Assembly: GCA_030446545.1 (NCBI GenBank)
Contig: JAUJNB010000013.1
Coordinates: 4,410-68,409, forward strand
DNA from: Acidimicrobiales bacterium
GTDB taxonomy: Bacteria > Actinomycetota > Acidimicrobiia > Acidimicrobiales > CADCSY01
Direction of reading: 5' to 3'
DNA: 64,000 nucleotides
The first letter of the stretch is position 1, and each line of letters starts with the position of its first letter. Shown piece after piece: positions 1,428 to 50,900 of this stretch. A program made the translations under genes and the position numbers. The notes below the pieces were generated by a model. The model made no database searches. It had not been told where the DNA came from and saw only the letters and a list, made by a program, of their open reading frames with translations.

Positions 1428-4343
1428 TCACCAGGTCCCGGCCGACCTCCACCTCCCGTTGGTAGGTGCCCAGGTCTCCGGAGGAAAGGGCGGCCTCGGC
1501 CCGGTCGAAGGCCGCCTGGGCCTGGCCCAGCAAGCCGGCCACGTCGGTGCCCGCATCGCTGGAGGGGGCGTCGGGGGGCGGAGTCCCACCCGGGTCCGGG
1601 GGTGCACCGCCGACCGGGGGGCACCGCCGACCGGCGGCGTGGCCCCAGGGGTGGGCTGCTCCTCCAGGGTTCCCGGGGACTGGCCGAACAGCTCGACCAG
1701 CGCCTGGTCCAAGGTGTCCTCCACCACGACCCGGCCCCCGAATGACACGATGACCTTCCGCAGTTCAGGGATCTCCGTGCTCTGGGAGATCACGTAGAAG
1801 GGCCGGACGTAGAGCAGGGACTGCTCGACGGGGATGATCACCAGGTTGCCGAACTGGACGCTTCGACCCTCACCACCGAGGAGGGTCTGCAGCTCGGACA
1901 CCTCCTGGTCCTGTTGCATGTTGGCCCCGACGATGGCCGGGCCGTCGGGCAGGTTGGATCTGGGCATGACGAAGGTCTGGAGCTCGCCGTAGTTCCCGGG
2001 GTCGCTCTTGGCCACCATGAAGGCGGTGAGCTCCTTGCGGCCGTCGTCCCTCGAGACCGGAACGAAGGGCCGCAACATCACGAAGCTCAACTCCTGGTCC
2101 CCGGGGAGACGCATGAGGAGGTAGTAGGGATCGATCCTGGCCTCTTGGGCCGGGCCCAGCGGTGCTCCCGTGACCGGGTCGACCGCCGGGCTGACCTGGG
2201 CCGCCGAGCCCGCCCCCGGGTCCTGGGCCACGTTCCACCCGTCGTTGTTGTTGTAGAAGTCGTCCGGGTTGTCGATGTGGTAGCGACCCCACATCGTGGT
2301 CTGGGTGCGAAAGAGGTCCTCGGGATAGCGGAAGTGCTCGCGAAGCTCTTCGGGAACGTCGTTCTGGTCGGCGAACAGCTCAGGGAACGCCTCCTGGTAG
2401 GCCCGGATGAGCGGGTCGTCGGGAGTGACGACGTAGAAGGTGACGGAGCCGTCGTAGGCGTCGACCACGGCCTTGACCGAGTTGCGGATGTAGTTGAAGT
2501 TGCGAGTCAACCCGCTCGACGCCGGCAGTGCGCCGGTTTCCGCCTGTTGGGCGTAGGGGAAGCTGGCCGAGGTGGTGTAAGCGTCGAGCACGTACTGCGT
2601 GCGGCCGCCGATGATGACCACGTAGGGGTCGGCGTCGAAGGAGAGGAAGGGCGCCAGGGCCTGGGCCCGCTCCCGGATGTCGCGCTGGTAAAGGACCTTC
2701 GAGTCGGGCCGCACACTGCTGGAGATGAGCGGGTTGATGTCGCCGAAGCGAAGGGCGAAGGCGGCCCGGCGAAGGTAGGAACCGACGTCCACCCCGTCGG
2801 CCCCCTCGTACCGGGTGAACTGCGTCCCCTGCTCGTTCTGGAAGTCGATCTCCTCCCGGGCGGTGTTGACCATGACGTAGTCATCGAGGCCCTCCCCGAC
2901 GTAGATGCCAGGTTGCTCCTCCAGGTTCATCGAGGCGGTCCCGTCGACGGGGATGTCGGAGACGATGAGCTCGGGTCGCCCATCTGCCGTCTTGGAGTTC
3001 GCCGGCGCCGCCACCGCCCCGTAGCCGTGGGTGTAGGTGAGGTGGCGGGCCTCCCAGGAGTTCTGAGGCACTCCCGGGGTGTCCAGCTCGCGTGCCGACA
3101 GCTCGACCTGGGTGAGCTCACCGTTGATCTCGTAGCGATCGACGTCGACGTCGATGATCTGGTACTGGGGCCGAACCTCTTGGAGCCGCTGGTAGCTCGG
3201 CAGCAGGAACTCGGGGTCCCACAGGCGGATGTTGCGCACCGTCTCGGCGTTGTCCTGGAGGGAGGATCCGTCGAGGGAGTCGTCGGCGGCAAAGTCGGTG
3301 GTGGCCACCTCGTCCAGGCCCATGGCAAACCGGGTGGCGGCGATGTTCTTGGTGATGTACTCCGCCTCTCGCGACGACTCGGCCGGCACCACCTGGAAGC
3401 GCTGGACGAAGGCCGGGACAATGCCCCCGGCAACGACGGCAGCCAGGGCCCAGGTTCCCACCGCGAAGGCCGGCAAAATCCAGCCCCGCCGGCGGATGTT
3501 GATGATGAACAGTAAGAAGGCGGTCAGCGAGATGAGGGTCAGCAACTCGAGGACCGGAAGCTGGGCGTTCACGTCGGTGTAGGTGGCGCCGTGCACCGTC
3601 CCCCGGGTGGACAGCGTGAGCTCGTAGCGCTGCAACCAGTAGCCGGCCGCCCGCAACAAGGCCAACACGCCGAAGATCACCGAGAGGTGGGCCTTGACCT
3701 GGACGCTGACCCGCTGCGACGAGCCCTGAAAGCGGATCCCCCCGTTGAGGTAGTGGGCGATGGCCACCACGATGGCCACGATCACCAGGGCGGCAAAGGC
3801 CCAGTCGACCAGGAAGGTGAGGAAGGGAAGCTGGAAGACGTAGAAGCCGGCGTCGATCGAGAACAACGGATCGACCTGACCGAAGTCGCGGGCGTTGGTG
3901 AACAGGATCCAGTCGTTCCACCGACTCGACACTCCGGCACCGGCGATGAGGGCGAAGACCCCGGCCAGGCCGGCTCGCACCAACCCGGTCCGGGACCCGA
4001 CCAGCTCGTGGTAGCGCTCGATGACTTCCTCTTCGGGACCGGACGGCCGGAACCGGGGGGCCAGCCGATCGGCGATGAACAGGTTCACCCACAACACGAC
4101 GAAGAACACGAGGCTGAACACCGCCCCGAGGCCCACCTTGGTGCCCAGCACCCCGGTGAAGACTCCGGTGAAGTTCAGCGAATCGAACCAGAGGTAGTCG
4201 GTGTAGAAGCCGGCGATGCCTTTCAGGGAGGTGAGCAGGACGAACAGGGTGACGCCGAGGGCGACCAGCCAGACCCGGCTGCGGGAGGCGGTGGGATCCA
4301 GGCGCACTCGTCGAGGAGGAGGCATATCGCCGGGAGCGCGCAT
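1428..4343 (-). CDS. UPF0182 family membrane protein (C-terminus shifts frame near 1570-1620; true end probably ~1350)
   Basis: YTDYLWF, DPLFSIDAGFYVFQLP, NIRLWDP, VDVDRY, HLTYTHGYG, NYIRNSVKAVVDAYDG, HFRYPEDLF; the typical tail AEAALSSGDLGTYQ is in another frame. Confidence 0.93.
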   Translation of the reverse strand: MRAPGDMPPPRRVRLDPTASRSRVWLVALGVTLFVLLTSLKGIAGFYTDYLWFDSLNFTGVFTGVLGTKVGLGAVFSLVFFVVLWVNLFIADRLAPRFRPSGPEEEVIERYHELVGSRTGLVRAGLAGVFALIAGAGVSSRWNDWILFTNARDFGQVDPLFSIDAGFYVFQLPFLTFLVDWAFAALVIVAIVVAIAHYLNGGIRFQGSSQRVSVQVKAHLSVIFGVLALLRAAGYWLQRYELTLSTRGTVHGATYTDVNAQLPVLELLTLISLTAFLLFIINIRRRGWILPAFAVGTWALAAVVAGGIVPAFVQRFQVVPAESSREAEYITKNIAATRFAMGLDEVATTDFAADDSLDGSSLQDNAETVRNIRLWDPEFLLPSYQRLQEVRPQYQIIDVDVDRYEINGELTQVELSARELDTPGVPQNSWEARHLTYTHGYGAVAAPANSKTADGRPELIVSDIPVDGTASMNLEEQPGIYVGEGLDDYVMVNTAREEIDFQNEQGTQFTRYEGADGVDVGSYLRRAAFALRFGDINPLISSSVRPDSKVLYQRDIRERAQALAPFLSFDADPYVVIIGGRTQYVLDAYTTSASFPYAQQAETGALPASSGLTRNFNYIRNSVKAVVDAYDGSVTFYVVTPDDPLIRAYQEAFPELFADQNDVPEELREHFRYPEDLFRTQTTMWGRYHIDNPDDFYNNNDGWNVAQDPGAGSAAQVSPAVDPVTGAPLGPAQEARIDPYYLLMRLPGDQELSFVMLRPFVPVSRDDGRKELTAFMVAKSDPGNYGELQTFVMPRSNLPDGPAIVGANMQQDQEVSELQTLLGGEGRSVQFGNLVIIPVEQSLLYVRPFYVISQSTEIPELRKVIVSFGGRVVVEDTLDQALVELFGQSPGTLEEQPTPGATPPVGGAPRSAVHPRTRVGLRPPTPPPAMRAPTWPACWARPRRPSTGPRPPFPPETWAPTNGRWRSAGTW

Positions 4344-4408
4344 GGCGGGAGCCTAGGGGTTGGAGATCGCCGACCGGCGGTCGGGAAGGGGCGGGAGACC
4401 CCGCCGGG

Positions 4409-6868
4409 CTAGACGGGCTCGACGGCGATGATGCAGCGGCAGCCCGGGTGCGCGGGCGGGTAGGGCTGGCCGGTCGGGAAGCTCTCACCCTTGTCGATGG
4501 CTCCGGCCAGGGCGTTGTCGTCGCAGTCGGGACACGGCCCTTCCCCGGTGTCGACCACCCAGCGCAACTTGCCCACCGGGGCCGATGCGAAGCGGCCCCG
4601 GGAGTGGGCGGCGCTGGCGTGGTGACGGGCCAGGGGCTCGGCTCTGGTGGTCTTCCACTCCCGGTAGGCCGACGAGATGCCGTCGACCATCGGTGCGACG
4701 TCGCCTTCGGCTGCTCCCAGCACTCGCTGGAGCCGGGCCCGCAGGTCTGCGGTGACCCCGGCCGCCAGGCCGACGGCCAGGTCGTCGACCGACGGTGGAT
4801 CGTTTCCGACACCGGCGCCTCGGGCCGCGGCGGCCCGCAACTCGGAGCCCACCGCGGCCAGGTAGCGGGCGGTGTGGTCGCTCGGACCGGGCAGCAGCTC
4901 CACGAGGGGGACACCGCCGCCCTTGCGGCGCAGCACGTCGAGCACCTCGTTCTGCTCGTCGACCAGCGCCCGCTTGAGCGCCTTGACCAGCGAGCGTTCC
5001 ACCGCCTCGAGCTCGGTGTCGCGGGCCTCGAGCAGGTCCTCGTCGTCGGTGGTCGGCTCCGGCTCCGGTGCCACCACGGCAGAAGCCCGACTCGCCGCAC
5101 TGCCGTTGGTGGACGCCACCACTTCGCTGACCGCCGGGGAAGGTGACGGGGTGGCCAGCACGGCCTCGGCTCGGGCGACGGCGGCCGCCCGTTCGGCGCG
5201 CAGGCGGGCGAAGAGATCCTCGACGTGGCGGTGAGGTCCCTGGCCACCGTCGGTCGCCGGCTCGTCGGTCGCCGGCTGGTCGGCTGCTGCCGGTTCGGCG
5301 GTCGCCGGCTGTTCGGCGGTCGCCGGCTGGTGGGCTGCTGCCGGTTCGGCGGTCGCCGGCTGGTCGGCTGCTGCCGATGCGGCGGTCGCCGGCTCGGCTG
5401 CTGCCGGCTCGTCGGTCGCCGGCTGGTCGGCTGCTGCCGGCTCGGCGGTCGCCGGCTCGGCGGCAACTGCCCTATCGGCGGCTGCTGCCGGTTCGGCGGT
5501 CGCCGGCTGGTTGGCTGCTGCCTCGCTGCGGACCGGCTCGTCGGTCACGGCCTGGTCGGCGGCCGCTTTAGCGGGCACCGCCTCGGTGCCGCCTGCGAGG
5601 TCGTCGACCTCGCTGCCGGGCAACCCCGTGGATCCTGATCGCAGGGAGGCCGACGGCGAGGAGGAGGAGGAGGAAGGCGAGGCGACCGACCCCGACGGCT
5701 CCTCCACGAGCGGCGACGATGCCGGTTGGGGCCCGGACGATACCGGGAGCGTGTCGGCCCGGTCGAGGTCCGGCTCCGACTCGTCCGGCTCCGACTCGTC
5801 CGGCGGCGGATAATCCACCCGGGCGAGCTCCGGCTCCAACGCCTCCGGCTCCGACGCCGCTGGGGGGGGCCCGTGCGGTGCCGTCACCGGCCCCGGTTGG
5901 TCAGCCCCGGACACCGCCGCCCCCGCCGGCCCCACCCGTCGTCCCGCCGGCCCCGCTTCGGGAACGGTCGGCTCCACCGGGCCCCTGGCCTCGGACAACC
6001 GAGCCTTCGGTGAGCTGTGGCGTGGACGGGACCACCCGGTGCCTGCGGAGGGCTCGACCACCGGCGCCTCCCCTTCGAGAGGCGGCGCCCCCGACGTCCA
6101 CGCCGGGGCCAGACCGATGTCGCGTGCCCCCACCAGCTCGGCCTCGAGCTCCTCGACGGTGGGTTCGCGCTGCGAGCCCACTCGGAGCGCCGCCGTCTCC
6201 GCCGCCGCCCTGGCCTCGACCTCGGCCACGCTCAGCTCGCGGGTGGCCTCGTCGAGGGTGCTACGCACCACCCGGTAGGCCTCCAGCAGGCGCTCCCGCC
6301 CGGCCCGGAGCTGCTCGAGCTGCTGGTGGGCCGCCCGCCGGCGCCGGGCCAGGTCCTTCAGCACCCGCTCGCGTACCGCCTGGGCCTCGGCCACCATCTC
6401 CCGACCACGGGCCTTGGCCCCCTCGAGAACCTCTTCGGCCGCCGTCTGGGCCTGGGCCTGGATCTCCACCGAGATGCGCTCCGCCTCCTCGGTGCGCAAA
6501 GCCAGGAGCGACTCGGCCTCGAGGTGGGCCCGGCTTCCTTCACCGCTGGCGTCACGCACGAGCCGGGCGACCTGGTCCTCGGCCCGGCTCCGGATCTCCG
6601 CCGCCGCCTCCCGGGCGGCCTGGAGCACCCGGCCGGCCTCTTGGCCCAGCGCCGCCTCGATCTCCTCGTCGCTCAGGGCCCGGTCCGACGCCCGGGATTC
6701 GGCCGCCTCCAGGCGCTCGCGCTGGAGCCGCTCACGCTCGCGAGTGGCAGCCAGCTCGGCCGCCACCTGGGCCAGGAACGCTCGCACCTCGTGCTGGGCG
6801 AACCCCCGGAAGGCCACCGGGAACTCCTTGGCGGCGACCTCCTCGGCCCCCAGCGCCACGTCGTTCAC
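4409..6868 (-). CDS. DivIVA-domain coiled-coil protein with C-terminal phage MuF (minor head protein)-like domain
   Basis: N-terminal EEVAAKEFPVAFRGFAQHEVRAFLAQVA; long coiled coil; low-complexity linker; C-terminal LRWVVD..CPDC..GESFPTG..PPAHPGCRC. Confidence 0.85.
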   Translation of the reverse strand: MNDVALGAEEVAAKEFPVAFRGFAQHEVRAFLAQVAAELAATRERERLQRERLEAAESRASDRALSDEEIEAALGQEAGRVLQAAREAAAEIRSRAEDQVARLVRDASGEGSRAHLEAESLLALRTEEAERISVEIQAQAQTAAEEVLEGAKARGREMVAEAQAVRERVLKDLARRRRAAHQQLEQLRAGRERLLEAYRVVRSTLDEATRELSVAEVEARAAAETAALRVGSQREPTVEELEAELVGARDIGLAPAWTSGAPPLEGEAPVVEPSAGTGWSRPRHSSPKARLSEARGPVEPTVPEAGPAGRRVGPAGAAVSGADQPGPVTAPHGPPPAASEPEALEPELARVDYPPPDESEPDESEPDLDRADTLPVSSGPQPASSPLVEEPSGSVASPSSSSSSPSASLRSGSTGLPGSEVDDLAGGTEAVPAKAAADQAVTDEPVRSEAAANQPATAEPAAAADRAVAAEPATAEPAAADQPATDEPAAAEPATAASAAADQPATAEPAAAHQPATAEQPATAEPAAADQPATDEPATDGGQGPHRHVEDLFARLRAERAAAVARAEAVLATPSPSPAVSEVVASTNGSAASRASAVVAPEPEPTTDDEDLLEARDTELEAVERSLVKALKRALVDEQNEVLDVLRRKGGGVPLVELLPGPSDHTARYLAAVGSELRAAAARGAGVGNDPPSVDDLAVGLAAGVTADLRARLQRVLGAAEGDVAPMVDGISSAYREWKTTRAEPLARHHASAAHSRGRFASAPVGKLRWVVDTGEGPCPDCDDNALAGAIDKGESFPTGQPYPPAHPGCRCIIAVEPV
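5248..5525 (-). repeat. Intragenic tandem repeat of 15/18-bp subunits (~33-bp period) encoding (ADQPATAEPAA)n
   Basis: Repeated cggcggtcgccggct / ggtcggctgctgccgg blocks. Confidence 0.9.
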
Positions 6869-6919
6869 GGACTCATGGTAGGAGGAGGCGACCCGAGATG
6901 GGCGGATACCCCTGGGCCG

Positions 6920-8167
6920 CTACAACAGCCCGCCGGTGACGTCTCCGAGCTCGTCGAGCACGCCGTCGAGCAGGTCGACCAGCGGGTCGACGACCGGCTC
7001 CAGCACACCCCCGTTGTCGTCGGGCCCCGGCCCCGTCACCACCGGGGGCGGCGCAACGGGACGAGGGCGGGGCACCGGCTCGGACGGGGCCGGAAGCACG
7101 ACCGGCGGGGCCGGCCGCAGGGGCGGCGGCTCGGGACGCCGGCGGACCGGCACCGGTGCGGGCTCGAACACCGGCTCCGACGACGGGGCCCCGAAGAGCA
7201 GGGGGGAGCGGGCCACGGCGCCGTCGAGGACGGACAGCAGCGCCGCCGGCGGCGCGTCCTGATCGAAGGCGACGATTCCCCACCCAGCCCCGTCGCTGCG
7301 CAGGGCGAAGACCTCGTCCCAGCGGGCGGCGAAGTCGTCGTCGCGTCCCACCAGGGCCACCGCCGCACCCACCAGCATCTCACCGACCGGGCGGTCCTGG
7401 CCGTCGAGGAGGGTCTGGTCGAACGAGGGCTGGTGGAGCAGGCCCGGGAGCACGGTCTGGTAGAAGAAGACGTCGGGCGTGAAGTCGTCCCGCAAGAGGG
7501 TCGTGAAGCCGGTCGAGCGCCGCTCGAGGTTGGCCTGGAGGTCGATGGCCTCGCCCAGGTACCGCCGGTCCCAGGGGTCGGGCGGTTCGGCGAACCGAAG
7601 CGGGCTGGCGGCGAGCGGCACCATGCCCGTGCCGGTGACCACGACCTGGCGCAGAGGTGCCAGCCCCCCCTCCAGGGTCCGCCCGCCCGACGTCAGGCCG
7701 GCTCGACCCTCGTAGACCACGAAGGTGGCCCCGGTGGTGAGGGAGATGCGCGCCGCCCCGTCGACCAGGGAGAGCCGGCCCCCGCCCGAGTCCACCACCA
7801 GTTCCTCGGCGCCGGCGGTGGCTAGGACGTCGCCCCCCTCGACCACGGGAATGGCCCCCACCTCGACCTGCGAAGCGGCACCGGGTGTCCCGGCCCGCAG
7901 CTCCAGGGCCCGGGCGCCGGACAGGCGCAGGACCCCGTCTCCGGACAGGAGCTCGATGTGTTCGCCGTCGGCCACGGCGTGGTCCCCACGCTGCACCCGG
8001 CGGGCTCCGCCGCCGCCCTTGATCTCGGCCGTCCCGTCGAGGTCCAGCGTGGCCGCCCGGTCCGGCGAACCGTCACCCGGCACACCGGTGGCGGTGATGA
8101 CCACGGCGAAGGTCAACACGACGGCGATGAGCAGGCCCAGCAGGCGGACCGCCCGCTGACCGGTCAT
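6920..8167 (-). CDS. Membrane-anchored/secreted protein with FecR-like beta domain and Pro-rich tail
   Basis: N-terminal hydrophobic helix; DGEHIELLSGDGVLRL..LELRAGT..EGGDVL..VVYEGRA pattern; ATGA overlap with the kinase stop. Confidence 0.7.
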   Translation of the reverse strand: MTGQRAVRLLGLLIAVVLTFAVVITATGVPGDGSPDRAATLDLDGTAEIKGGGGARRVQRGDHAVADGEHIELLSGDGVLRLSGARALELRAGTPGAASQVEVGAIPVVEGGDVLATAGAEELVVDSGGGRLSLVDGAARISLTTGATFVVYEGRAGLTSGGRTLEGGLAPLRQVVVTGTGMVPLAASPLRFAEPPDPWDRRYLGEAIDLQANLERRSTGFTTLLRDDFTPDVFFYQTVLPGLLHQPSFDQTLLDGQDRPVGEMLVGAAVALVGRDDDFAARWDEVFALRSDGAGWGIVAFDQDAPPAALLSVLDGAVARSPLLFGAPSSEPVFEPAPVPVRRRPEPPPLRPAPPVVLPAPSEPVPRPRPVAPPPVVTGPGPDDNGGVLEPVVDPLVDLLDGVLDELGDVTGGLL

Positions 8168-10830
8168 CGCTGCGCCCGCAGGCTGCGACGGTGGCCCGCC
8201 GCCAGGGCCGGCCTGGTGGCCGGCAGGGCGATGGTGAAGGTGGAGCCCTCGCCCGGCTGGGAGCGGCAGGTGAGCGTGCCGCCGTGGGCCTCGCAGATGT
8301 GGCGGACGAGGGCCAGGCCCAGGCCCAGGCCACCGAACTCCCGGGTCGACGATCCGTCACCCTGGGCGAACTCCCCGAAGATGGTGCCGAGGCGCTCGGG
8401 CAGGATGCCCACGCCCTCGTCGCTCACCGACAGCTCCACGTAAGGCCGGGAGCCGTTGCCGGCCCGCCCTCCGGCCCTCGCCACCACCGTGACCACGCCA
8501 CCGTCGGGCGAGTACTTGACGGCGTTGTCGATGAGCTCGTCGACCACCTGTTCGAGGTAGCGCCGGTCGCCCTCGAGGTCGGGGATGCTGTCGGGCACCT
8601 GGCTGCGCAGCGTGTGGCGCTCGCCCAGTCGGTCCGCCCAACGGGCCGCGGCGTCGTCGACCAGGGCCCGGACGGGGACGGGCTCGGTGTGCAGGTCGAG
8701 GCGGCCGGCGGAGACGGTGGCGAAGTTCACCAGGCGACTGATGACCCGCTCGAGCTTCCCCGCGCTCACCAGGATCTCGGCCGCGAAGTCCTTGGTCTTG
8801 TCCTCCGACAGCGACCGGGTCGAGAGCATGGACGCGTAGCCCTTGATGGGGGTCAGCGGCGTCTTCCACTCATGGCTGATGTTGGCCAGGAACTCCGTCT
8901 TCATCCGTTCGACCTCACGCTCGGGGCGCAGGTCGCGCAGGACCACCACGCCACCCACCATCTCGCCTCCGGTGCCCCGCACCGCGCCGCAGGAGACGGC
9001 CACCGGCACCCGGGTGCCGTCGCGACGCACGACCGTCCCGGTGGTGCTCCAGGGCTCCAGGCGGGGGAAGGCGATGCGGGTGGTGAGGTCCTCGCCCTGA
9101 GGCCCGAGCAGGGCGAGCTCGGCCACCACCTGACCACAGACCTCGTTCGAGGGCCGGTCGAACAACTCCTCGGCGGCGGCGTTGAAGTCGGTGACCGTCC
9201 CGGCCCCGTCGACGGCCATCAGGGCCTCGCCCATGCCCGCCACCACCGCCTCGAGGCGGCCGCGCAGGCGGGCCTCGTCGACGGCCGACTCCCGCAGCTC
9301 ACCCGTCATGGACCCGAGGGCGGCGGCCATCGAGTCGAAGGCGTCTCCGAGCGTGCCCAGTTCGTCGCCGGGAGGCAGGCCGGCCCGGGCCTCCAGGTTG
9401 CCGCCCCGGATCTCCTCGGCCGAGCGGGTCAGCCGGCGCAGGCCGGCGCCGATGCGCTCACCGACCAGCGCCGCCAGCACCAGGGCCACCAGGGCCGCGC
9501 CCAGCGCCACCAGGAACAGGGTGCCGAAAAGCTGCTGGCGAGTGGTGGCCACCAGGGTCGTGGGCGCCGACACGACCACCGCGAAGACGGGTTCGGTCCC
9601 GCCGTACACCGGGTGGGCGGCCACGAACAGGCCGCCGACCAGTTGGCGGATGGGCTCACCGCTGTCGAGCGCTCCCCGGGCCGCGCTGGTCAACGTGGAG
9701 GAGGTGGGCTGGGTCCCGGCACTGGCCAGGACACCGTCGCGGCCGACCAGGGCCAGGCTCAGGCTGCGGTCGTTCTCCTTGCGCACCGCCAGGTACTCCC
9801 GGTCGAAGGGCTCGGCCGCGAAGACGGCGCCGACGAACCGGGACTGGCCCCGGACCGACACCCGGACCGGCGATGCCGCCGCGGCCAGGGCGTCGCCACC
9901 CACCAGGGCGGGGGCGCCGCGGTCGCCTTGTTGATCCTGGATCGTGTCCCGCACGACCTTGGCCCCGGAGATGTCGACCTGCACGTTGGGGCTGTCGACC
10001 CCCCTCCCGCCGACGACCACCCCCTCGCTGGTGACGTAGGCCAGGATGGCGCCCTGGAACACCAGGTTCTCGGCGATGGCGCCGAGGTCGGCCACCACCT
10101 CGTCAGCAGCCGTGGCCCCCGCTTCGGAACCCGGGTCCTCGGCCAGGGTGACCAGCCGGGCCACGTCCTCGGCTCCGCCGGACGAACCGAGGACGAGCGC
10201 CGCCAGCTTGGCGCTGAGCACGGCGTCGTTGGTGGCCCGCTCGATCTCGGCCGCCTCGGCTCCCGCCCGTGACTCGATGCGCAGCAGCGCCTCGTCCTCG
10301 ACGTTGTCGATCACCACCGCCGACAGCGCCACCGAGACGGCCAGCACCACCAGGAGGATGGTGCCCGTGGCGCTGGCCGCCACCCGGGCCGAGATCGACC
10401 GCTGGCTGGCGGTGAACAGCGCGGCCCCGAGGCCGAGGGCGCCCATCGCCCGGGCCGTGTCAGCGGCCCAGCCCAGGTCGGCCAGCGGTGACAACACCGT
10501 GATCACTTCGGCCGCCAGCAACAGGCCGAGGGCGAGGGCAAGCTGGCGACGGGGGGCGGCGTCGCCGGCACGCAGGGCCCCGGCCCCGAGCAGGACCAGA
10601 CCCACCAGGCGGGTGACGAGGACACCAGGGGCGGCCGGATCGTCCTGCAGGAGGGAGCCGTGCAGGAAGGCGGCCACGCCGACCGCCGTGAACCCCAGGG
10701 CGAGGAGGAGCTGTCCCCGCCGCTCCCCGGCCAGCAGCTTGGCCCGGACGACGACGCCGAGCCCGGCCACGGCGGCCAGGAACAGCACGAACTCGGCCGC
10801 GAAGCCGAGTTGCGCCGACGCTGCGCTCAA
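8164..10830 (-). CDS. Sensor histidine kinase (multi-TM, extracellular domain, HAMP, PAS, HisKA, HATPase)
   Basis: HAMP GDELGTLGDAFDSM; PAS FNAAAEELF; H-box ANISHEWKTPLT; N-box ELIDNAVKYS; DEGVGI; GGLGLGL. Confidence 0.93.
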   Translation of the reverse strand: MSAASAQLGFAAEFVLFLAAVAGLGVVVRAKLLAGERRGQLLLALGFTAVGVAAFLHGSLLQDDPAAPGVLVTRLVGLVLLGAGALRAGDAAPRRQLALALGLLLAAEVITVLSPLADLGWAADTARAMGALGLGAALFTASQRSISARVAASATGTILLVVLAVSVALSAVVIDNVEDEALLRIESRAGAEAAEIERATNDAVLSAKLAALVLGSSGGAEDVARLVTLAEDPGSEAGATAADEVVADLGAIAENLVFQGAILAYVTSEGVVVGGRGVDSPNVQVDISGAKVVRDTIQDQQGDRGAPALVGGDALAAAASPVRVSVRGQSRFVGAVFAAEPFDREYLAVRKENDRSLSLALVGRDGVLASAGTQPTSSTLTSAARGALDSGEPIRQLVGGLFVAAHPVYGGTEPVFAVVVSAPTTLVATTRQQLFGTLFLVALGAALVALVLAALVGERIGAGLRRLTRSAEEIRGGNLEARAGLPPGDELGTLGDAFDSMAAALGSMTGELRESAVDEARLRGRLEAVVAGMGEALMAVDGAGTVTDFNAAAEELFDRPSNEVCGQVVAELALLGPQGEDLTTRIAFPRLEPWSTTGTVVRRDGTRVPVAVSCGAVRGTGGEMVGGVVVLRDLRPEREVERMKTEFLANISHEWKTPLTPIKGYASMLSTRSLSEDKTKDFAAEILVSAGKLERVISRLVNFATVSAGRLDLHTEPVPVRALVDDAAARWADRLGERHTLRSQVPDSIPDLEGDRRYLEQVVDELIDNAVKYSPDGGVVTVVARAGGRAGNGSRPYVELSVSDEGVGILPERLGTIFGEFAQGDGSSTREFGGLGLGLALVRHICEAHGGTLTCRSQPGEGSTFTIALPATRPALAAGHRRSLRAQR

Positions 10831-10911: not shown

Positions 10912-12039
10912 CTACGGCAGCGGGGAAAGCGGATCCCCGCCCTGGTCGACCAGCACCCGGAGTGCCTCGGAGAGGCTATCCACCGGCTCGACCGTCAACC
11001 GGTCGTCGGCCAGGCCACGGACAGCCTCGGCCTCGGCCGTGGGAACGAGCAGGAGGTCGATCCCCTCGTCCACCGCCACGGCGGTCTTCTGGGCCAACCC
11101 CCCGACCGGGCCCACCGACCCGTCCAGCTCGATGGTGCCGGTGGCGGCCACCCGCCGACCCCCGGTGAGCTCACCGGGCGTGAGGACGTCGAGGATCTCC
11201 AGGGTGAAGGCCAGGCCGGCCGAAGGGCCACCGATGCGATCAGAGGCGATGTCGACCTGGAAGGGGAGGTCGAGGCGGGGGGCGCGCGTCCGGAGGGTGG
11301 TTCCGAGGAACGCCGTGGCCGGGTCGTCAGGGCTGCCGGCGAGGGTCAGGGTGACCGGGCGCTGCTCCCCGGTGCCACCGCCGGCGCCGGCCCTCCCGGC
11401 CGACTCGACCAGAAGCTCGACCTCGGCGCCCGGCCGACGCCGGCGCAGCGCCCCGAGGACGTCGTGGTGGGCGGTGACGGGAGACCCGCCGACGCCGAGG
11501 ATCGTGTCACCGGCCACCAGCACCCCGTCGGACGGGGAGCCGGGAACCACCTGGACCACCTCGGCCCCGGTCCCGGCCACGGCGTCGTAGCCCAGCTCCT
11601 CGAAGGCGACGGCCACCGCCTGGGCCTTGGAGGAGTCCATCTGGGCCAGGTTGAAGTCCCGCAGCTCTTCGGTATTCACGTCGGGAGGCACGATCTGGTC
11701 CCGGGCCACGACCTCCACGGTCGGATCGAGCCACCCACGCAGCGCCCCGGCCACGTTCACCTGACCCAGGCGGACGGTGATCAGGTGGATCTGGCCCCGG
11801 GTGGGGACACGGCGCTCGGCGGCCACGTCCACGAGTGGGCCCACCTCGACGGCCGATCCCGGTGAGATGGCGAGATAGGGCACCTCCACCTGCATCACCC
11901 CCAGCGTCAGCACCGCCACCACGGCCACAGCCAGGGCCAGGCGCCAACGCGGGGAGACCTCCCACCCGGGCAGCGAACTCTCCGACGGGGCGAGCGGGGG
12001 GCTCGGCGCTACCCTCGTGCTCCCGGTGTCCATGTTCAT
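10912..12039 (-). CDS. PDZ-domain Lon-like (S16, YlbL-type) protease
   Basis: TM helix; PYLAISPGS; QMDSSKAQA; GGPSAGLAFTL (Ser) and GGLAQK (Lys) dyad; start chosen at MNMDTG, the longer ORF is shadow of the HEAT gene. Confidence 0.9.
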   Translation of the reverse strand: MNMDTGSTRVAPSPPLAPSESSLPGWEVSPRWRLALAVAVVAVLTLGVMQVEVPYLAISPGSAVEVGPLVDVAAERRVPTRGQIHLITVRLGQVNVAGALRGWLDPTVEVVARDQIVPPDVNTEELRDFNLAQMDSSKAQAVAVAFEELGYDAVAGTGAEVVQVVPGSPSDGVLVAGDTILGVGGSPVTAHHDVLGALRRRRPGAEVELLVESAGRAGAGGGTGEQRPVTLTLAGSPDDPATAFLGTTLRTRAPRLDLPFQVDIASDRIGGPSAGLAFTLEILDVLTPGELTGGRRVAATGTIELDGSVGPVGGLAQKTAVAVDEGIDLLLVPTAEAEAVRGLADDRLTVEPVDSLSEALRVLVDQGGDPLSPLP

Positions 12040-12183
12040 CTGCCTCGCCGTGGTCGCCTCGTCGATGCCGTCGGTGGCCGCCGTACTGCACGCCAGGCCG
12101 GGCGACCAGGCCAGCGTGCCACGCCCCGGCGCCGACGACGACGCGGGGCGCCGGAATCGGTCGCCGGCCGCGCCGGCCCCCAG

Positions 12184-12822
12184 ATGAGCGACGTCGGGCC
12201 CGGTCGTGGGGACGGGCCCGGGCCAGGACGGAGGGACGCGGCCGTCGCCGGCCACGAAGGGGAGTTCGACCTGGCGCAGCGCCTGCTCGAGCACCCCGAT
12301 GCGGGGACACGGGCCACTGCGCTGGCCGCGCTGTCCAGGATGGGGAAGATGGCAACGGCGACGCTGCGGGTGGCCCTGGCCGATCCCTCGCCGGTGGTGC
12401 GCCGGCGAGCCGTCGTGCTGGCCGTGGCCCGCCCCACCATCTCGCTCATCCCCCTGCTGGGAGATGCCGACGACACCGTGGTGGAGGCCGCCGCCTACGC
12501 CTGCGGGGAGCGCCGGCCGGCCGAGCCCGGCGTGGTGGCGAACCTGGCCGCAGTGGCGACCGACCACGCCGACGGCCTGTGTCGGGAGGCGGCGGTGGCC
12601 GCCCTCGGGGCACTGGGCGATGCGTCCGGACTTTCGGCCATCCTGGCCGCCACTCGGGACCGGGCCACGGTGCGCCGGCGCGCCGTTCTCGCCCTCGCCC
12701 CCTTCACCGGCCCCGAGGTCGACGCCGCTCTGGCCCGGGCGATGGGCGATCGTGACTGGCAGGTCCGCCAGGCCGCCGAGGACATCGGGGCCGCCACCGG
12801 GACACCCGACAAGGATCCCTGA
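12184..12822 (+). CDS. HEAT/PBS-lyase repeat protein
   Basis: Repeats LADPSPVVRRRA, CREAAVAALGALGD, DRDWQVRQAA. Confidence 0.85.
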   Translation: MSDVGPGRGDGPGPGRRDAAVAGHEGEFDLAQRLLEHPDAGTRATALAALSRMGKMATATLRVALADPSPVVRRRAVVLAVARPTISLIPLLGDADDTVVEAAAYACGERRPAEPGVVANLAAVATDHADGLCREAAVAALGALGDASGLSAILAATRDRATVRRRAVLALAPFTGPEVDAALARAMGDRDWQVRQAAEDIGAATGTPDKDP

Positions 12823-12865
12823 CCGCGCCTCCACCGCCCCCCGGGCCGTCCGGAGCCGGGAACGG

Positions 12866-13858
12866 TCACATGAACATCGTCTTGAGGTCGTCGTAGGCCT
12901 CGATGCAGCGGCCGGCGCCGAGCACCACGCACTCGAGGGGGGCGTCGACCAGGTGCACGGGCACGTTGGTCTCCTCGGCCAGACGCTGGTTGAGCCCGCG
13001 CAGCATGCCTCCGCCGCCCACCAGGTGGATGCCGTGGTTGATCAGGTCCTGGGCCAGTTCGGGCTGGGCCTGGCCGAGGCAGGACACGACCGAGTCGCAC
13101 ACCGCGCTGATCTGGTCGTCGATGGAGGCACGGACCTCCCCCGGCGACAGGATCACCGTCTTCGGGAGGCCGCTCATGAGATCACGGCCCCGCACCTCGG
13201 CCTTGACCTCCTCCCTGGTGGGCCAGGCCGAGCCGATGGCCACCTTGATGTCCTCGGCCGTGCGCTCCCCCACGGCGATCCCGTACTCGCGCTTGACGTA
13301 CGACTGGATGGCGTAGTCGAGGTCGAACGAGCCGAGGCGGATGGCCCGGAGGGCGACGATGCCCCCGAGGGAGATCACGGCCGTCTCCGAAGTCCCGCCA
13401 CCGATGTCGACCACCATGTTGCCGAAGGGCTCGTTGACCGGGAGCCCGGCCCCGATGGCGGCGGCCATGGGCTGGCCGATGAGTTGGGCGTCGGCCGCAC
13501 CGGCCCGCCGGGCCGCCTCGGTGACCGCCCGACGCTCCACCTCGGTGATGGCGGAGGGCACGCAGATCACCACCCGGGGACGGTTGAAGCGACTGACCCC
13601 GGCCCGGTTGAGCAGCAGGCGGATCATGCGCTGGGTGACGTCGAAGTCGGTGATAGCACCCTTGCGCAGGGGGCGTACGGCCTGGATGTAGCTGGGGGTA
13701 CGGCCGATCATCTGCCACGCCTCGTGGCCCATGGCCAACACGTCGCCCGTCTTGACGTTGAGGGCGATGACCGAGGGCTCGTTCAACACGATCCCCTGGC
13801 CCTTGGCGTAGACGAGGGTGTTGGCCGTTCCCAGGTCGATGGCGAGGTCGCGAGCCAC
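12866..13858 (-). CDS. mreB: Rod shape-determining protein MreB/Mbl
   Basis: AIDLGTANT, EPSVIA, PSAITEVERRAV, VVDIGGGTSE, VGERTAEDIK, GGGGML. Confidence 0.95.
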   Translation of the reverse strand: MARDLAIDLGTANTLVYAKGQGIVLNEPSVIALNVKTGDVLAMGHEAWQMIGRTPSYIQAVRPLRKGAITDFDVTQRMIRLLLNRAGVSRFNRPRVVICVPSAITEVERRAVTEAARRAGAADAQLIGQPMAAAIGAGLPVNEPFGNMVVDIGGGTSETAVISLGGIVALRAIRLGSFDLDYAIQSYVKREYGIAVGERTAEDIKVAIGSAWPTREEVKAEVRGRDLMSGLPKTVILSPGEVRASIDDQISAVCDSVVSCLGQAQPELAQDLINHGIHLVGGGGMLRGLNQRLAEETNVPVHLVDAPLECVVLGAGRCIEAYDDLKTMFM

Positions 13859-48248: not shown

Positions 48249-49004
48249 TCAGCTGGCGGCGGCGTCCTCGTCAGAGCTCTCGGAGGAGCCGGACATTCCT
48301 GTTTGCGGCTGTTCGAAGCCCCCGGCGACGTGGGCAACGATGTCGGCGAAAGACAGAGAGCCTTGTTCCAGTCGTTGCAGGCTTTCGCACCCGAGGAGCA
48401 CCTGTCTCACCGCATCCTCGATCTGTTGCTTGGCCGAGACGACGAGCTGGGCCACCGTGCGCTCTGCTTCGGCTCGCAGTTCCTGCTCGTGGCGCCTCGC
48501 TGATTCCCTCAGCTCCGTTGCCTCGCGTTCGACGGTCGCCCGAGCCTCCATCGCCGCCTCCAACTCGTGGCGAGCCTCGGTTCTGGTCTGGGCCACCTCC
48601 CTGCGGGCAACAGCCCGCACCTCCGCGGCCTCCTGCTCGGCCTCGGCCCGCAACTCGCTCGCCGCCTCCAGCTCCAGCCGGGCTTCGGCCGCGGCGTGCT
48701 CGGCCTCCTCGCGAGCTGCGGTGCGAATCGACGCCGCTTCCCGCTCGCTGTCGCTCTGCCGTTGCTTGGCGGCCTCAGTTGCGGCGCGCATCACCGACGC
48801 CACGTGGTCCCCGAGATCGGCGAAGGGATCGGACACCGACGGCGATGCCGACGTGCCCCCCTGGCGGGCCAGCGCCAACTCCGCCATGAGCTCGGCGTAC
48901 TGGTCGGCGACGTCCTGCAGGAACGTCTCCACCTCGTGCTTGTCGTAACCGCGCAGGGCAACCAGGAAGTCTTTGCTCTTGATCTCCTCAGGTGAGAGCG
49001 GCAT
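48249..49004 (-). CDS. DivIVA-domain coiled-coil protein (second in window)
   Basis: MPLSPEEIKSKDFLVALRGYDKHEVETFLQDVA plus coiled coil. Confidence 0.88.
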   Translation of the reverse strand: MPLSPEEIKSKDFLVALRGYDKHEVETFLQDVADQYAELMAELALARQGGTSASPSVSDPFADLGDHVASVMRAATEAAKQRQSDSEREAASIRTAAREEAEHAAAEARLELEAASELRAEAEQEAAEVRAVARREVAQTRTEARHELEAAMEARATVEREATELRESARRHEQELRAEAERTVAQLVVSAKQQIEDAVRQVLLGCESLQRLEQGSLSFADIVAHVAGGFEQPQTGMSGSSESSDEDAAAS

Positions 49005-49211
49005 GTCTGGGACTCCTCGTAGAGTGGCAGGTGCGGCAGGCAAGTTACCATCGCCATTGGCTCGACCAGGTGGCCGTCACCTCTCTGGAACCACACAGCG
49101 CCTGGCCGCTTACGGTCACGCGGTGACAGGCTCGAATTTCGTCGCCGCACGGGCATCTCACCCTTACCCGACTGCTGCTAGACCTACAACCATGGCCCAT
49201 CGGTCCGACAG

Positions 49212-50900
49212 GTGGGGCCCCTCCAGGATTGGTCGAGACCGACTGACGGTCTCCATGGCGCTCTCAAAACCCCCGCTCTGACGGTGGGCTCCACCTCGCG
49301 GCAGGTCACTGCAAACTCAATCTCCGGTGCCACGTGGACCACGCTGAGCCGGGTGACGGGTTTCGGCCGAGTTGTCACCATCGCTGCCGTCCTCGGGCCT
49401 ACGTACTTCGGCAACATCTTTCAAGCCACCAACTTGCTCCCGAACCTGACCTATGAGTTTCTGACGGGAGCGCTGTTCTCTTCTCTGCTTGTGCCCAGCC
49501 TGGTGAAGCACATCGACGTCGAAGACCGTGAGGCCGGTGAGCGCGTCGCTGGCGGGTTCCTCGGCGTTACCTTGATCGTATTTTCGGTGGTCACCATCGT
49601 GGCAATCGCTGCAGGCCCGGCACTGCTCCAGCTCCTCTCACTGGGCGTGGAGGACCAAGGAGTCGCTCAGGCTCAACAGCGTGTGGGCTGGGTGCTCATC
49701 GCCATGCTCATGCCACAGGTGATCCTGTACGGGGTCGCGGCAACCGGAGCCGCGGTGATGAACGCCCATGGTCGGTTCGCTCTTGCCGCCGCAGCTCCGG
49801 CACTCGAGAGCATCGGTGTCATCCTCACCATGGCCGCACTCGTGGTGCTGTTCGGCACCGCCCCATCGCTCGAAACGGTACGCACCCCCTACCTGCTGGT
49901 CCTGGGACTGGGCACCACGGGCTCGGTCGGGTTGCACGCGCTCGTCCAGTGGCTCGGCGCACGACGCTGCGGTGTCCGGCTCGTGCCTCGATTCGGCTGG
50001 CGCAATCCCGAGGTCCTCGATGTGCTGCGTCGTGCCGTACCTTCTCTCGGCTTCGCTGGGCTCAACTCGATTCGGGTGTTCGCCGTCCTGGTCGTCGCCA
50101 ACCGAGTGGCGGGGGGCATCGTGGCCTTCCAGTTGGCCCTGAACTTCTTCTATCTGCCGGTAGCGGTGTGGGCCCGACCAGTGTCGCTGGCCATGCTGTC
50201 GCAGCTCTCTCGACTTCGAGATACTCCGAAGATGTTCCACGACGAGCTGGTCAGGGGGGCCACTCTGGCCTTCTTCCTCGTCGTACCGGCCGCGGTGGCA
50301 TTTGCGGTCCTCGCCCTACCTCTGGCGAGGGCGGCCTCGTATGGTGAGATGTCGACGCCGGCCGGTATCGCCCTGGTGGCAGCCTCGCTGGCCGCGCTCG
50401 CCCCCGGGGTCCTCGGAGAGGCAGGATTTGTGATCGCCACCCATGCCTCCTACGCCCGGGGCGACGCTGGGACTCCTCTTCGCTCCATGGTGATACGGAC
50501 AACCATCGCCCTGAGCGGTTCGATCGGAGCCTTCCTTCTCACTGACGGCGTGGTGCTGCTCGTCTTGCTTGGCTTGGCGATCTCGGCGAGCAACCTGACC
50601 AGCGCCGGGGTCCTCGGTCGAGGGTTTCTCCGTGGACAGGACCGAGGCACCGAGCGGTTGCTGGGACCATTCCTGCGCACCCTCGGCGCGTCGGCTCTCA
50701 TGGTGGTTCCCGCCTACGCCATCACCACTCTGCTCCCGCCGTTCCTCGACATCCGATGGGGAGACCTCGTCGCCATGTTCGTGGCCGGGATCGTCGGGGC
50801 AGCCACGTTCATCGCCATCCAGCGAGCATGGCGTTCGCCGGAGCTGGATTCCCTGCTCCGCAGCCGGCCCTCACGCAAGCGCGCAGGCGAGCCCGCGTGA
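49212..50900 (+). CDS. MurJ/MviN-like flippase
   Basis: LSRVTGFGR, NLLPNLTYE, FALAAAAP, many TM helices. Confidence 0.85.
   Translation: MGPLQDWSRPTDGLHGALKTPALTVGSTSRQVTANSISGATWTTLSRVTGFGRVVTIAAVLGPTYFGNIFQATNLLPNLTYEFLTGALFSSLLVPSLVKHIDVEDREAGERVAGGFLGVTLIVFSVVTIVAIAAGPALLQLLSLGVEDQGVAQAQQRVGWVLIAMLMPQVILYGVAATGAAVMNAHGRFALAAAAPALESIGVILTMAALVVLFGTAPSLETVRTPYLLVLGLGTTGSVGLHALVQWLGARRCGVRLVPRFGWRNPEVLDVLRRAVPSLGFAGLNSIRVFAVLVVANRVAGGIVAFQLALNFFYLPVAVWARPVSLAMLSQLSRLRDTPKMFHDELVRGATLAFFLVVPAAVAFAVLALPLARAASYGEMSTPAGIALVAASLAALAPGVLGEAGFVIATHASYARGDAGTPLRSMVIRTTIALSGSIGAFLLTDGVVLLVLLGLAISASNLTSAGVLGRGFLRGQDRGTERLLGPFLRTLGASALMVVPAYAITTLLPPFLDIRWGDLVAMFVAGIVGAATFIAIQRAWRSPELDSLLRSRPSRKRAGEPA

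Follow-up and report, generated by a model that had tools for sequence, protein, structure and literature searches.

GpsB is an adaptor that combines a DivIVA-like N-terminal domain with a different C-terminal domain. Phage MuF proteins, minor head proteins of the Mu gpF/SPP1 gp7 type, bind the portal oligomer, and SPP1 gp7 is packaged in the capsid, according to the available part of one study (PMC5576092). In a second source, likewise available in part, MuF appears as a domain of virions that occurs in fusions with numerous effector domains (PMC5512222). In those parts of both papers MuF and gp7 figure only as virion components and as carriers of phage toxins, and the function of MuF is stated to be unknown. 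A protein that joins the two kinds of module, with a DivIVA domain at its N-terminus and a MuF-like domain at its C-terminus, is encoded in a 64,000-nucleotide stretch of DNA (the window) from an Acidimicrobiales bacterium (assembly GCA_030446545.1, contig JAUJNB010000013.1, positions 4,410 to 68,409 of the forward strand), a metagenome-assembled genome (MAG) that is 71% complete. The gene, here called DivIVA-MuF, is an old, vertically inherited chromosomal gene of the class Acidimicrobiia that is also found in a few other deep actinobacterial lineages, and it stands directly before a gene for a UPF0182 membrane protein. No description of the family was found in the open-access or bioRxiv literature under DivIVA plus MuF, DivIVA plus Acidimicrobiia, or MuF-like plus function.

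The open reading frame (ORF) begins with a GTG codon and encodes a protein of four conserved modules: a DivIVA domain with its stalk, a variable acidic linker, a helix carrying the motif LFARLR, and the MuF-like domain at the C-terminal end. The DivIVA domain is recognized over the curated cut-offs both in Pfam (PF05103, E 7.2e-12, 45.8 bits against 28) and in NCBIfam (TIGR03544 at residues 8-39, 34.3 bits against 22). A full-length AlphaFold2 (AF2) model, built on an alignment of 28 relatives, places a short N-terminal domain before a single long stalk helix, whose predicted local distance difference test (pLDDT) is mostly above 90, and mostly 90-95, when averaged in blocks. About 290 linker residues follow with pLDDT below 50; a low-confidence stretch at residues 574-602 precedes the confidently modelled C-terminal domain. 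Residues 251-608 consist to 66% of proline, alanine, serine, glutamate and threonine and carry a net charge of -36. The linker DNA contains imperfect tandem repeats at 5251-5522, and the length of the linker is variable among relatives. Soil-metagenome contigs carry in-frame indels of 3, 6 and 15 nt within this repeat-rich region (5053-5251 and 5937), so that linker length differs even between close strains. Inside the otherwise disordered linker sits the LFARLR helix, in which L552, F553, R555, R557 and A558 are almost invariant in the alignment and the block pLDDT is 93 and 89. Of 230 family proteins, 212 have the motif. It precedes the KRxxxDEQN helix, the first of the MuF-like domain, by a median of 78 residues, and it may serve for docking. 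An earlier note on this DNA, made from the sequence alone, had described a DivIVA motif, a coiled coil, a disordered linker and a Cys/His-bearing C-terminus, all of which are present; the LFARLR helix and the fixed pairing with UPF0182 were absent from its description.

The same note had assigned the C-terminus to the MuF/SPP1-gp7 type, and this assignment is upheld by comparison of profiles and of predicted folds, whereas the scores of single-sequence hidden Markov model searches stay below the cut-offs. The domain alignment comprises the window copy and the C-terminal domains cut from 25 related genomes (26 sequences). The reference was the annotated MuF-like minor capsid protein of Microbacterium phage ValentiniPuff with 16 relatives, all of them with PF04233, from which 15 proteins were aligned. 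Hhalign matches the two profiles with a probability of 96% and E 3.9e-9 over 68 columns, covering only the last ~70 residues, and pairs CPDC...FPTG...PPAHPGCRC with the phage pattern C..C...F.NG...PP.HPSCRC. At the level of sequence profiles, the last ~70 residues are thereby homologous to MuF/SPP1 gp7. On the whole protein, PF04233 gives a weak match at residues 739-814 (E 0.037, 15.2 bits against a cut-off of 29.6), which rises to 19.2 bits, still below the cut-off, when the domain is searched alone; the SPP1 gp7 model TIGR01641 reaches 20 bits against 39.65. Half of the aligned family (13 of the 26 members) matches PF04233 at E <= 1, with a best value of 3.3e-4, and two members match VG15. 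A precomputed PF04233 assignment is found on one relative (P0008) among 120 listed. Searches of PHROGs returned weak matches to head-morphogenesis families (E 0.025 and weaker) and one family of unknown function at E 1.9e-4.

Modelled by itself, the C-terminal domain folds with high confidence (pLDDT 95.6; predicted template modelling score 0.90) into four long helices and a small strand-and-knuckle end. Foldseek finds 49 matches to this model at E <= 1e-3 among the predicted viral structures of BFVD, the best at E 7.9e-6, and the best-fitting rows have TMq values of 0.77, 0.74 and 0.74, with predicted models on both sides. Thirty of the 50 rows listed are named: 24 are minor capsid, head morphogenesis or MuF-like proteins, one is uncharacterized, and the other five are larger proteins that bear the name of a different part or function (two portal proteins, a capsid maturation protease, a zeta toxin and an ADP-ribosyltransferase). 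For the helical bundle, and so for the whole 210-residue domain, kinship with MuF is suggested by the predicted fold only. No PDB entry was matched by Foldseek at E <= 1e-3, and no solved MuF structure was found by PDB profile search, Foldseek against the PDB, or VIA-align. A weak PDB profile match of the helical part to ZorA (E 1.6e-3) was judged to be compositional, and the wide VIA-align search gave generic helical bundles only, with a best Z of 9.3, which is under the level meaningful for helical proteins. The nearest clusters in the ESM Atlas are unannotated Actinomycetota; the cluster at rank 13 (score 0.90), in which 28% of members carry PF04233, is a lead only. Direct tblastn against 50,697 phage records matched 17, each over ~55 residues or fewer, and no record covered at least 80% of the domain. 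With phage matches so few and so short, the gene is not a recent capture.

The Cys/His knuckle, which reads W..D...CPDC...GESFPTG...PPAHPGCRC exactly as the earlier note quoted it, is shared with phage MuF proteins. Its pattern could be fitted to 242 of 258 family proteins. The five candidate ligands are C-C-H-C-C in 165 of these, C-A-H-C-C in 49, S-C-H-C-C in 18 and otherwise composed in 10; at least four of the five are kept in 237 of the 242, and the final CxC, which contains the invariant C810 and C812, is kept in every one. In the alignment of phage MuF proteins the corresponding C258, C261, H285, C288 and C290 are invariant, and hhalign aligns them with the window knuckle. This pattern fits a putative four-ligand metal site. 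Other features are family-specific, such as the motifs KRxLxDEQN, PLRERL and YREWK. The invariant or near-invariant charged and polar residues (K632, R633, D637, E638, Q639, N640, R710, R712, Y735, R736, E737, K739, D781, D784 and N785) are located on helices 1, 3 and 4 and in the knuckle.

Among 8000 candidates scored, 909 proteins match the C-terminal domain at E <= 1e-3. PF05103 is found on 105 of 120 relatives listed, and the public names of relatives are 'DivIVA domain-containing protein', 'cell division initiation protein' or 'hypothetical protein'. When 1.84 billion cluster representatives were searched with the profile, 4731 matched at E <= 1e-3 and 1195 at E <= 1e-30; in each of the 150 matches listed the domain extends to the C-terminus or to within 26 residues of it. 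Within the class, 128 of 201 genomes match, as do 126 of the 161 that are of high quality. Presence is partial in families f14 (12 of 20 genomes) and f23 (3 of 9), and no match was found in the 47 genomes of family f17 (those listed are ~1.1 Mb) or the seven of family f16. Every matching class genome has a single such place except G118, with two weak extra matches, and G099, a member of the same order, with two full-length copies of the C-terminal domain (C11:31232-31852 and C1:442142-442786), the sole case among the 128. A survey of the phylum found matches in 35 of 301 genomes and in 12 of the 277 outside the class. Nine of these 12 have a near-full-length domain (one is G336, an unpublished genome), and three match the last ~85 positions only, like phage MuF. 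No match was found in the large actinobacterial families sampled (0/21, 0/24, 0/22 and 0/17 genomes). In the outside-class genome G203, two neighbouring ORFs of 500 and 454 residues (C4:269755-270021 and 271169-271423) match the last ~85 profile positions only and probably represent MuF proteins of prophages. Among the named carriers are many Acidimicrobiales MAGs and two cultured strains, Aquihabitans daechungensis DSM 27986 and Aquihabitans sp. McL0605.

The integrity of the gene was followed in two sets of loci, one of 20 fetched loci (five from outside the class) and one of 80, of which 79 were testable for UPF0182 and 68 had complete open frames. An in-frame DivIVA-type motif lies upstream of the MuF-like domain in all 20 fetched loci, and the motif F....RG.....EV..FL stands near the start of 63 of the 68 complete frames. 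The survey across the class that the earlier note had called for thus finds the fusion conserved and no chimeric join. Proteins of the larger set are approximately 565-866 residues long (median 674), and one genome of family f19 encodes a compact form of ~390 residues that keeps both ends. Pairwise distances between copies of the gene track those of its neighbours (r 0.71 and 0.61, against 0.74 for a control pair), a correlation that shows shared vertical descent only and no specific co-evolution.

The surroundings of the gene are chromosomal. Along the minus strand the order is MreB, PDZ-LonC protease, histidine kinase, 415-residue protein, DivIVA-MuF and UPF0182, with MoaE, UDG and GlgB as further neighbours in the window (Table 1). 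Phage genes for portal, terminase or capsid protease are not among the window neighbours, nor were they seen in the 20 and 79 related loci, and no PF04233 match over the cut-off occurs elsewhere in the 71%-complete MAG; the non-phage context claimed earlier is in agreement with these results. The UPF0182 gene follows directly downstream on the same strand in 20 of 20 fetched loci, and in 79 of 79 testable loci its start lies between -45 and +179 nt from the DivIVA-MuF stop codon. No terminator-like site is found in the gap between the two genes in the window. On the other side, 18 of the 20 loci have the PDZ-LonC gene upstream and 11 have MreB inside the fetched stretch; a histidine kinase gene is inserted in five and a 415-residue-protein gene in three. 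In two small genomes without DivIVA-MuF, PDZ-LonC abuts UPF0182; the gene therefore lies between two genes that are adjacent when it is absent. Rv3194c and Rv3193c are the corresponding pair of neighbours in Mycobacterium tuberculosis.

Table 1. Features of the DivIVA-MuF locus, in window coordinates; residue numbers refer to the DivIVA-MuF protein.
Feature	Position	Strand	Basis
DivIVA-linker-MuF-like gene, 819 residues plus stop	4409..6868	-	ORF call and relatives of the C-terminal domain
DivIVA domain, residues 8-122, motif FPVAFRGFAQHEVRAFL	6503..6847	-	PF05103, TIGR03544
Long coiled-coil-like stalk helix, residues 67-230	6179..6670	-	AF2
Disordered acidic P/A/S/E/T-rich linker with tandem repeats, residues 256-544	5237..6103	-	AF2, composition, repeats
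Conserved LFARLR helix, residues 545-572	5153..5236	-	Alignment, AF2
MuF-like C-terminal domain, residues 607-819: four long helices and a small Cys/His knuckle	4412..5050	-	AF2, Foldseek, hhalign
Candidate metal site C779-P-D-C782 ... H807-P-G-C810-R-C812	4433..4534	-	Alignments, pattern counts
-10-like box TACCAT, 6 nt upstream of GTG; candidate promoter of a leaderless mRNA	6875..6880	-	Sequence
UPF0182 membrane-protein gene, 65 nt downstream of DivIVA-MuF	1428..4343	-	PF03699, E 3.8e-264
415-residue protein without family	6920-8167	-	Window gene order
PAS/HAMP histidine kinase gene	8164-10830	-	Window gene order
PDZ plus Lon_C (S16) protease gene, usual upstream neighbour	10912..12834	-	Pfam Lon_C, PDZ
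MreB gene	12866-13858	-	Window gene order

The invariant pairing with UPF0182 is the strongest functional clue and makes this membrane protein the proposed partner. In the available part of a preprint (bioRxiv 10.1101/2025.11.14.688347), UPF0182 is a protein with seven transmembrane segments linked to FtsH/YccA-dependent membrane-protein quality control. Knock-down phenotypes of UPF0182 in Mycobacterium smegmatis correlate there with those of ftsH (r 0.80) and yccA (r 0.67), similar links are given for Corynebacterium glutamicum and Bifidobacterium breve, and AlphaFold3 predicts a tetrameric dome. Drug-sensitivity phenotypes are given there for MSMEG1959. The favoured explanation, held tentatively and at a little under an even chance, is that DivIVA-MuF is a membrane-tethered adaptor that works with UPF0182 in membrane-protein homeostasis, the link being drawn only from gene order. 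The DivIVA end would hold the protein at the cytoplasmic face of the membrane, and the long linker would give the MuF-like domain, perhaps together with the LFARLR helix, the reach needed to dock onto a membrane complex. The most likely docking target would be UPF0182, whose gene invariably comes next. The PDZ-LonC protease from the upstream gene may share a module with UPF0182. DivIVA-MuF would serve a unit of envelope and membrane-protein homeostasis as an accessory adaptor or regulator on the cytoplasmic side, and would be neither a virion part nor a defence gene. A core gene with a MuF-like fold in a fixed position before a membrane-protein gene looks like an old phage part in cellular use. 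More specifically, early actinobacteria may have taken over a portal-docking module of phages and used it to attach a DivIVA scaffold to a ring- or dome-shaped membrane complex, the UPF0182 oligomer, so that membrane proteolysis of the FtsH or LonC type is placed or gated at certain regions of the membrane; this version is doubtful. The earlier proposal of a domesticated phage head domain holds in part: a MuF-type domain is fused to DivIVA outside phages, but the DNA-anchoring and decoy roles suggested for it are unlikely.

Several observations weigh against partnership with UPF0182. The link is one of gene order alone. UPF0182 is present in five of the five class genomes that are without DivIVA-MuF, that is, independently of it. 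According to the available part of the preprint it occurs in all Actinobacteria (bioRxiv 10.1101/2025.11.14.688347), while no DivIVA-MuF gene was found in 265 of the 277 phylum genomes outside the class. Most of UPF0182 lies outside the cytoplasm, which leaves little cytoplasmic surface for docking. Membrane binding by the DivIVA domain is assumed. The invariant K632, R633, D637, E638, Q639, N640, R736, D781 and D784 would equally fit a ligand-binding or catalytic site. A complex prediction that combined the N-terminal 345 residues of UPF0182 with the MuF-like domain scored 0.00 and 0.00 against a mark of 0.32 and counts neither way. The presence of MreB nearby in 11 of 20 loci makes a role in shape or growth independent of UPF0182 possible. 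In such a scaffold the DivIVA domain would mark curved membrane and the MuF-like domain would recruit a wall-synthesis or division protein, as GpsB and Wag31 do. An mreB gene also stands in the window itself, the DivIVA domain scores over its cut-off, and there are weak matches to GpsB (E 9.4e-4) and Wag31 (E 3e-5). However, the genome has other DivIVA genes for the canonical job (six places match, five of them over the cut-off, this gene included), the sole invariant neighbour is UPF0182 and no division or wall gene, and dcw genes were not seen among the neighbours scanned. A scaffold of this kind is unlikely, though it deserves serious weight.

The polar cluster and metal site could instead form the active site of a small-molecule-binding or enzymatic domain that DivIVA only places at the membrane, which would account for the strong conservation of the charged and polar residues named above. 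Against this, no similarity to an enzyme family emerged from the PDB profile search (only the weak ZorA match), from Foldseek against the PDB (nothing) or from VIA-align (Z at most 9.3). A catalytic role of MuF is not described in the available parts of PMC5576092 and PMC5512222, and the idea is rather improbable. Tethering of DNA or the nucleoid to the pole, with the MuF-like domain binding DNA like SPP1 gp7, is highly unlikely. The Cys/His knuckle is conserved, and gp7 is termed a DNA-binding protein in the title of a reference within the available part of PMC5576092, but the domain is acidic, with a negative net charge in 25 of 26 members (median -7.5, pI 5.3), as is the linker; among the neighbours no gene for partition (par), origin or segregation was seen, and the gene keeps synteny with that of a membrane protein. 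Defence genes typically have a patchy distribution and lie in variable islands, whereas this gene occupies one fixed position across the class and is single-copy in all but one matching genome. A decoy that traps portal or head proteins of incoming phages, as the earlier note had also suggested, is accordingly barely plausible, even though the domain has the predicted fold of a portal-binding phage protein (Foldseek; PMC5576092, in part). The gene has no match at E <= 0.01 in PADLOC-DB 2.0, which holds systems described by 2023, four neighbours gave only a weak Lon match, on the protease, and its sequence resembles that of any phage MuF only weakly and only over ~55 residues. The chance that the gene is an assembly chimera, or the remnant of a decaying prophage or MuF toxin, is negligible. 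The MAG is incomplete, and in four soil-metagenome runs short contigs tile the gene, with no single public contig across the whole of it. Yet the same architecture occurs in the complete genomes of the two Aquihabitans strains and in hundreds of MAGs, the GC content at third codon positions (0.87) is like that of the neighbouring genes, phage genes are absent nearby, and the protein has no toxin domain and carries MuF at the C-terminal instead of the N-terminal end. The comparative data exclude an artefact, barring an error common to every one of these assemblies.

The gene may have its own promoter. The earlier note had pointed to a leaderless-type promoter, and its TACCAT box is present; it is a candidate only. 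In 15 of 21 orthologous loci an in-frame start codon has a TANNNT box 6-9 nt ahead of it, compared with a mean of 0.6 and a maximum of 4 for shuffled upstream stretches. Two of the other six loci have, by eye, a GGAGG-type ribosome-binding site instead. Arrangements with a -10 box only and leaderless mRNAs are common in Actinobacteria, and the conserved box fits a candidate promoter of this type. A sigma-70 consensus scan of 4000-7400 found no promoter, a scan that does not model the -10-only promoters of actinobacteria.

Some neighbouring genes have features of their own. The 3′ end of the UPF0182 gene (1428-1700, minus strand) seems to carry a frameshift: beyond residue ~895 the called frame continues as a tail rich in proline, arginine and tryptophan, and the family's usual C-terminal motif (..SGDLGTYQREVEVGRDLV..) is legible in another frame of the same strand, which reflects either an assembly error or a real frameshift in the MAG. 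The 415-residue protein has an N-terminal hydrophobic segment and a proline-rich tail and matches no Pfam, NCBIfam or PADLOC family; its relatives lie between the histidine kinase and DivIVA-MuF genes in three of 20 loci. The PDZ-LonC protease has 300 N-terminal residues without a family match, and its C-terminal part resembles the SepM-family S16 pheromone-processing proteases (NF041438, E 3.7e-29, below the cut-off). Farther along the window, a second DivIVA-domain gene (48249-49043, minus strand, 264 residues, TIGR03544 over the cut-off) adjoins an ORF for a 562-residue multi-pass membrane protein (49212-50900, plus strand) and may be the canonical DivIVA of the organism.

If the adaptor explanation is true, cells have long retained a domain of the MuF fold in a core gene, and there are defined partners against which to test it. 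The pairing with UPF0182 offers a handle on a family newly tied to FtsH regulation in the preprint. Re-use of a portal-docking module, if true, would be the first known cellular job of a MuF domain and would supply a cytoplasmic regulator for the enigmatic, actinobacteria-wide UPF0182 family. The two cultured carriers, A. daechungensis DSM 27986 and Aquihabitans sp. McL0605, make bench tests feasible.

Among known systems, DivIVA and Wag31 are the relatives of the N-terminal half. They share with DivIVA-MuF the DivIVA domain over the cut-offs, the motif F..RG....EV..FL and the long helix after it. DivIVA-MuF is three times longer, inserts the disordered linker of ~290 residues, adds a folded C-terminal domain and has UPF0182 as its neighbour, and it falls far short of the Wag31 equivalog NF050102 (24.1 bits against a cut-off of 260). 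GpsB resembles it in using a DivIVA-type head as a membrane-proximal adaptor joined to a distinct C-terminal module, and there is the weak match to NF010725 (E 9.4e-4). In contrast to GpsB, however, DivIVA-MuF scores 19.6 bits against a cut-off of 91, has an unrelated C-terminal domain and a very different size, and belongs to an actinobacterial lineage.

The phage MuF and SPP1 gp7 proteins are the relatives of the C-terminal half. The likeness extends over the whole 210-residue predicted fold (TMq up to 0.77), over the last ~70 residues by profile, and over the pattern C..C ... PP.HP.CRC. The ValentiniPuff MuF protein, gp6, is encoded between the portal and protease genes, whereas DivIVA-MuF has no portal, terminase or capsid protease gene beside it. 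Unlike phage MuF, DivIVA-MuF scores below the curated cut-offs, carries the domain behind a DivIVA domain, has motifs of its own and is a core cellular gene across the class. The MuF polymorphic toxins and other MuF fusions, as described in the available parts of PMC5576092 and PMC5512222, likewise show MuF to be a module readily fused to others. Neither Pfam nor NCBIfam identifies a toxin domain in DivIVA-MuF. In those fusions MuF stands at the N-terminus, joined to a toxin, enzyme, portal or protease, and the genes belong to the late genes of phages; DivIVA-MuF, which is encoded on the chromosome, has the domain at its C-terminus, behind a scaffold of the cytoskeletal type.

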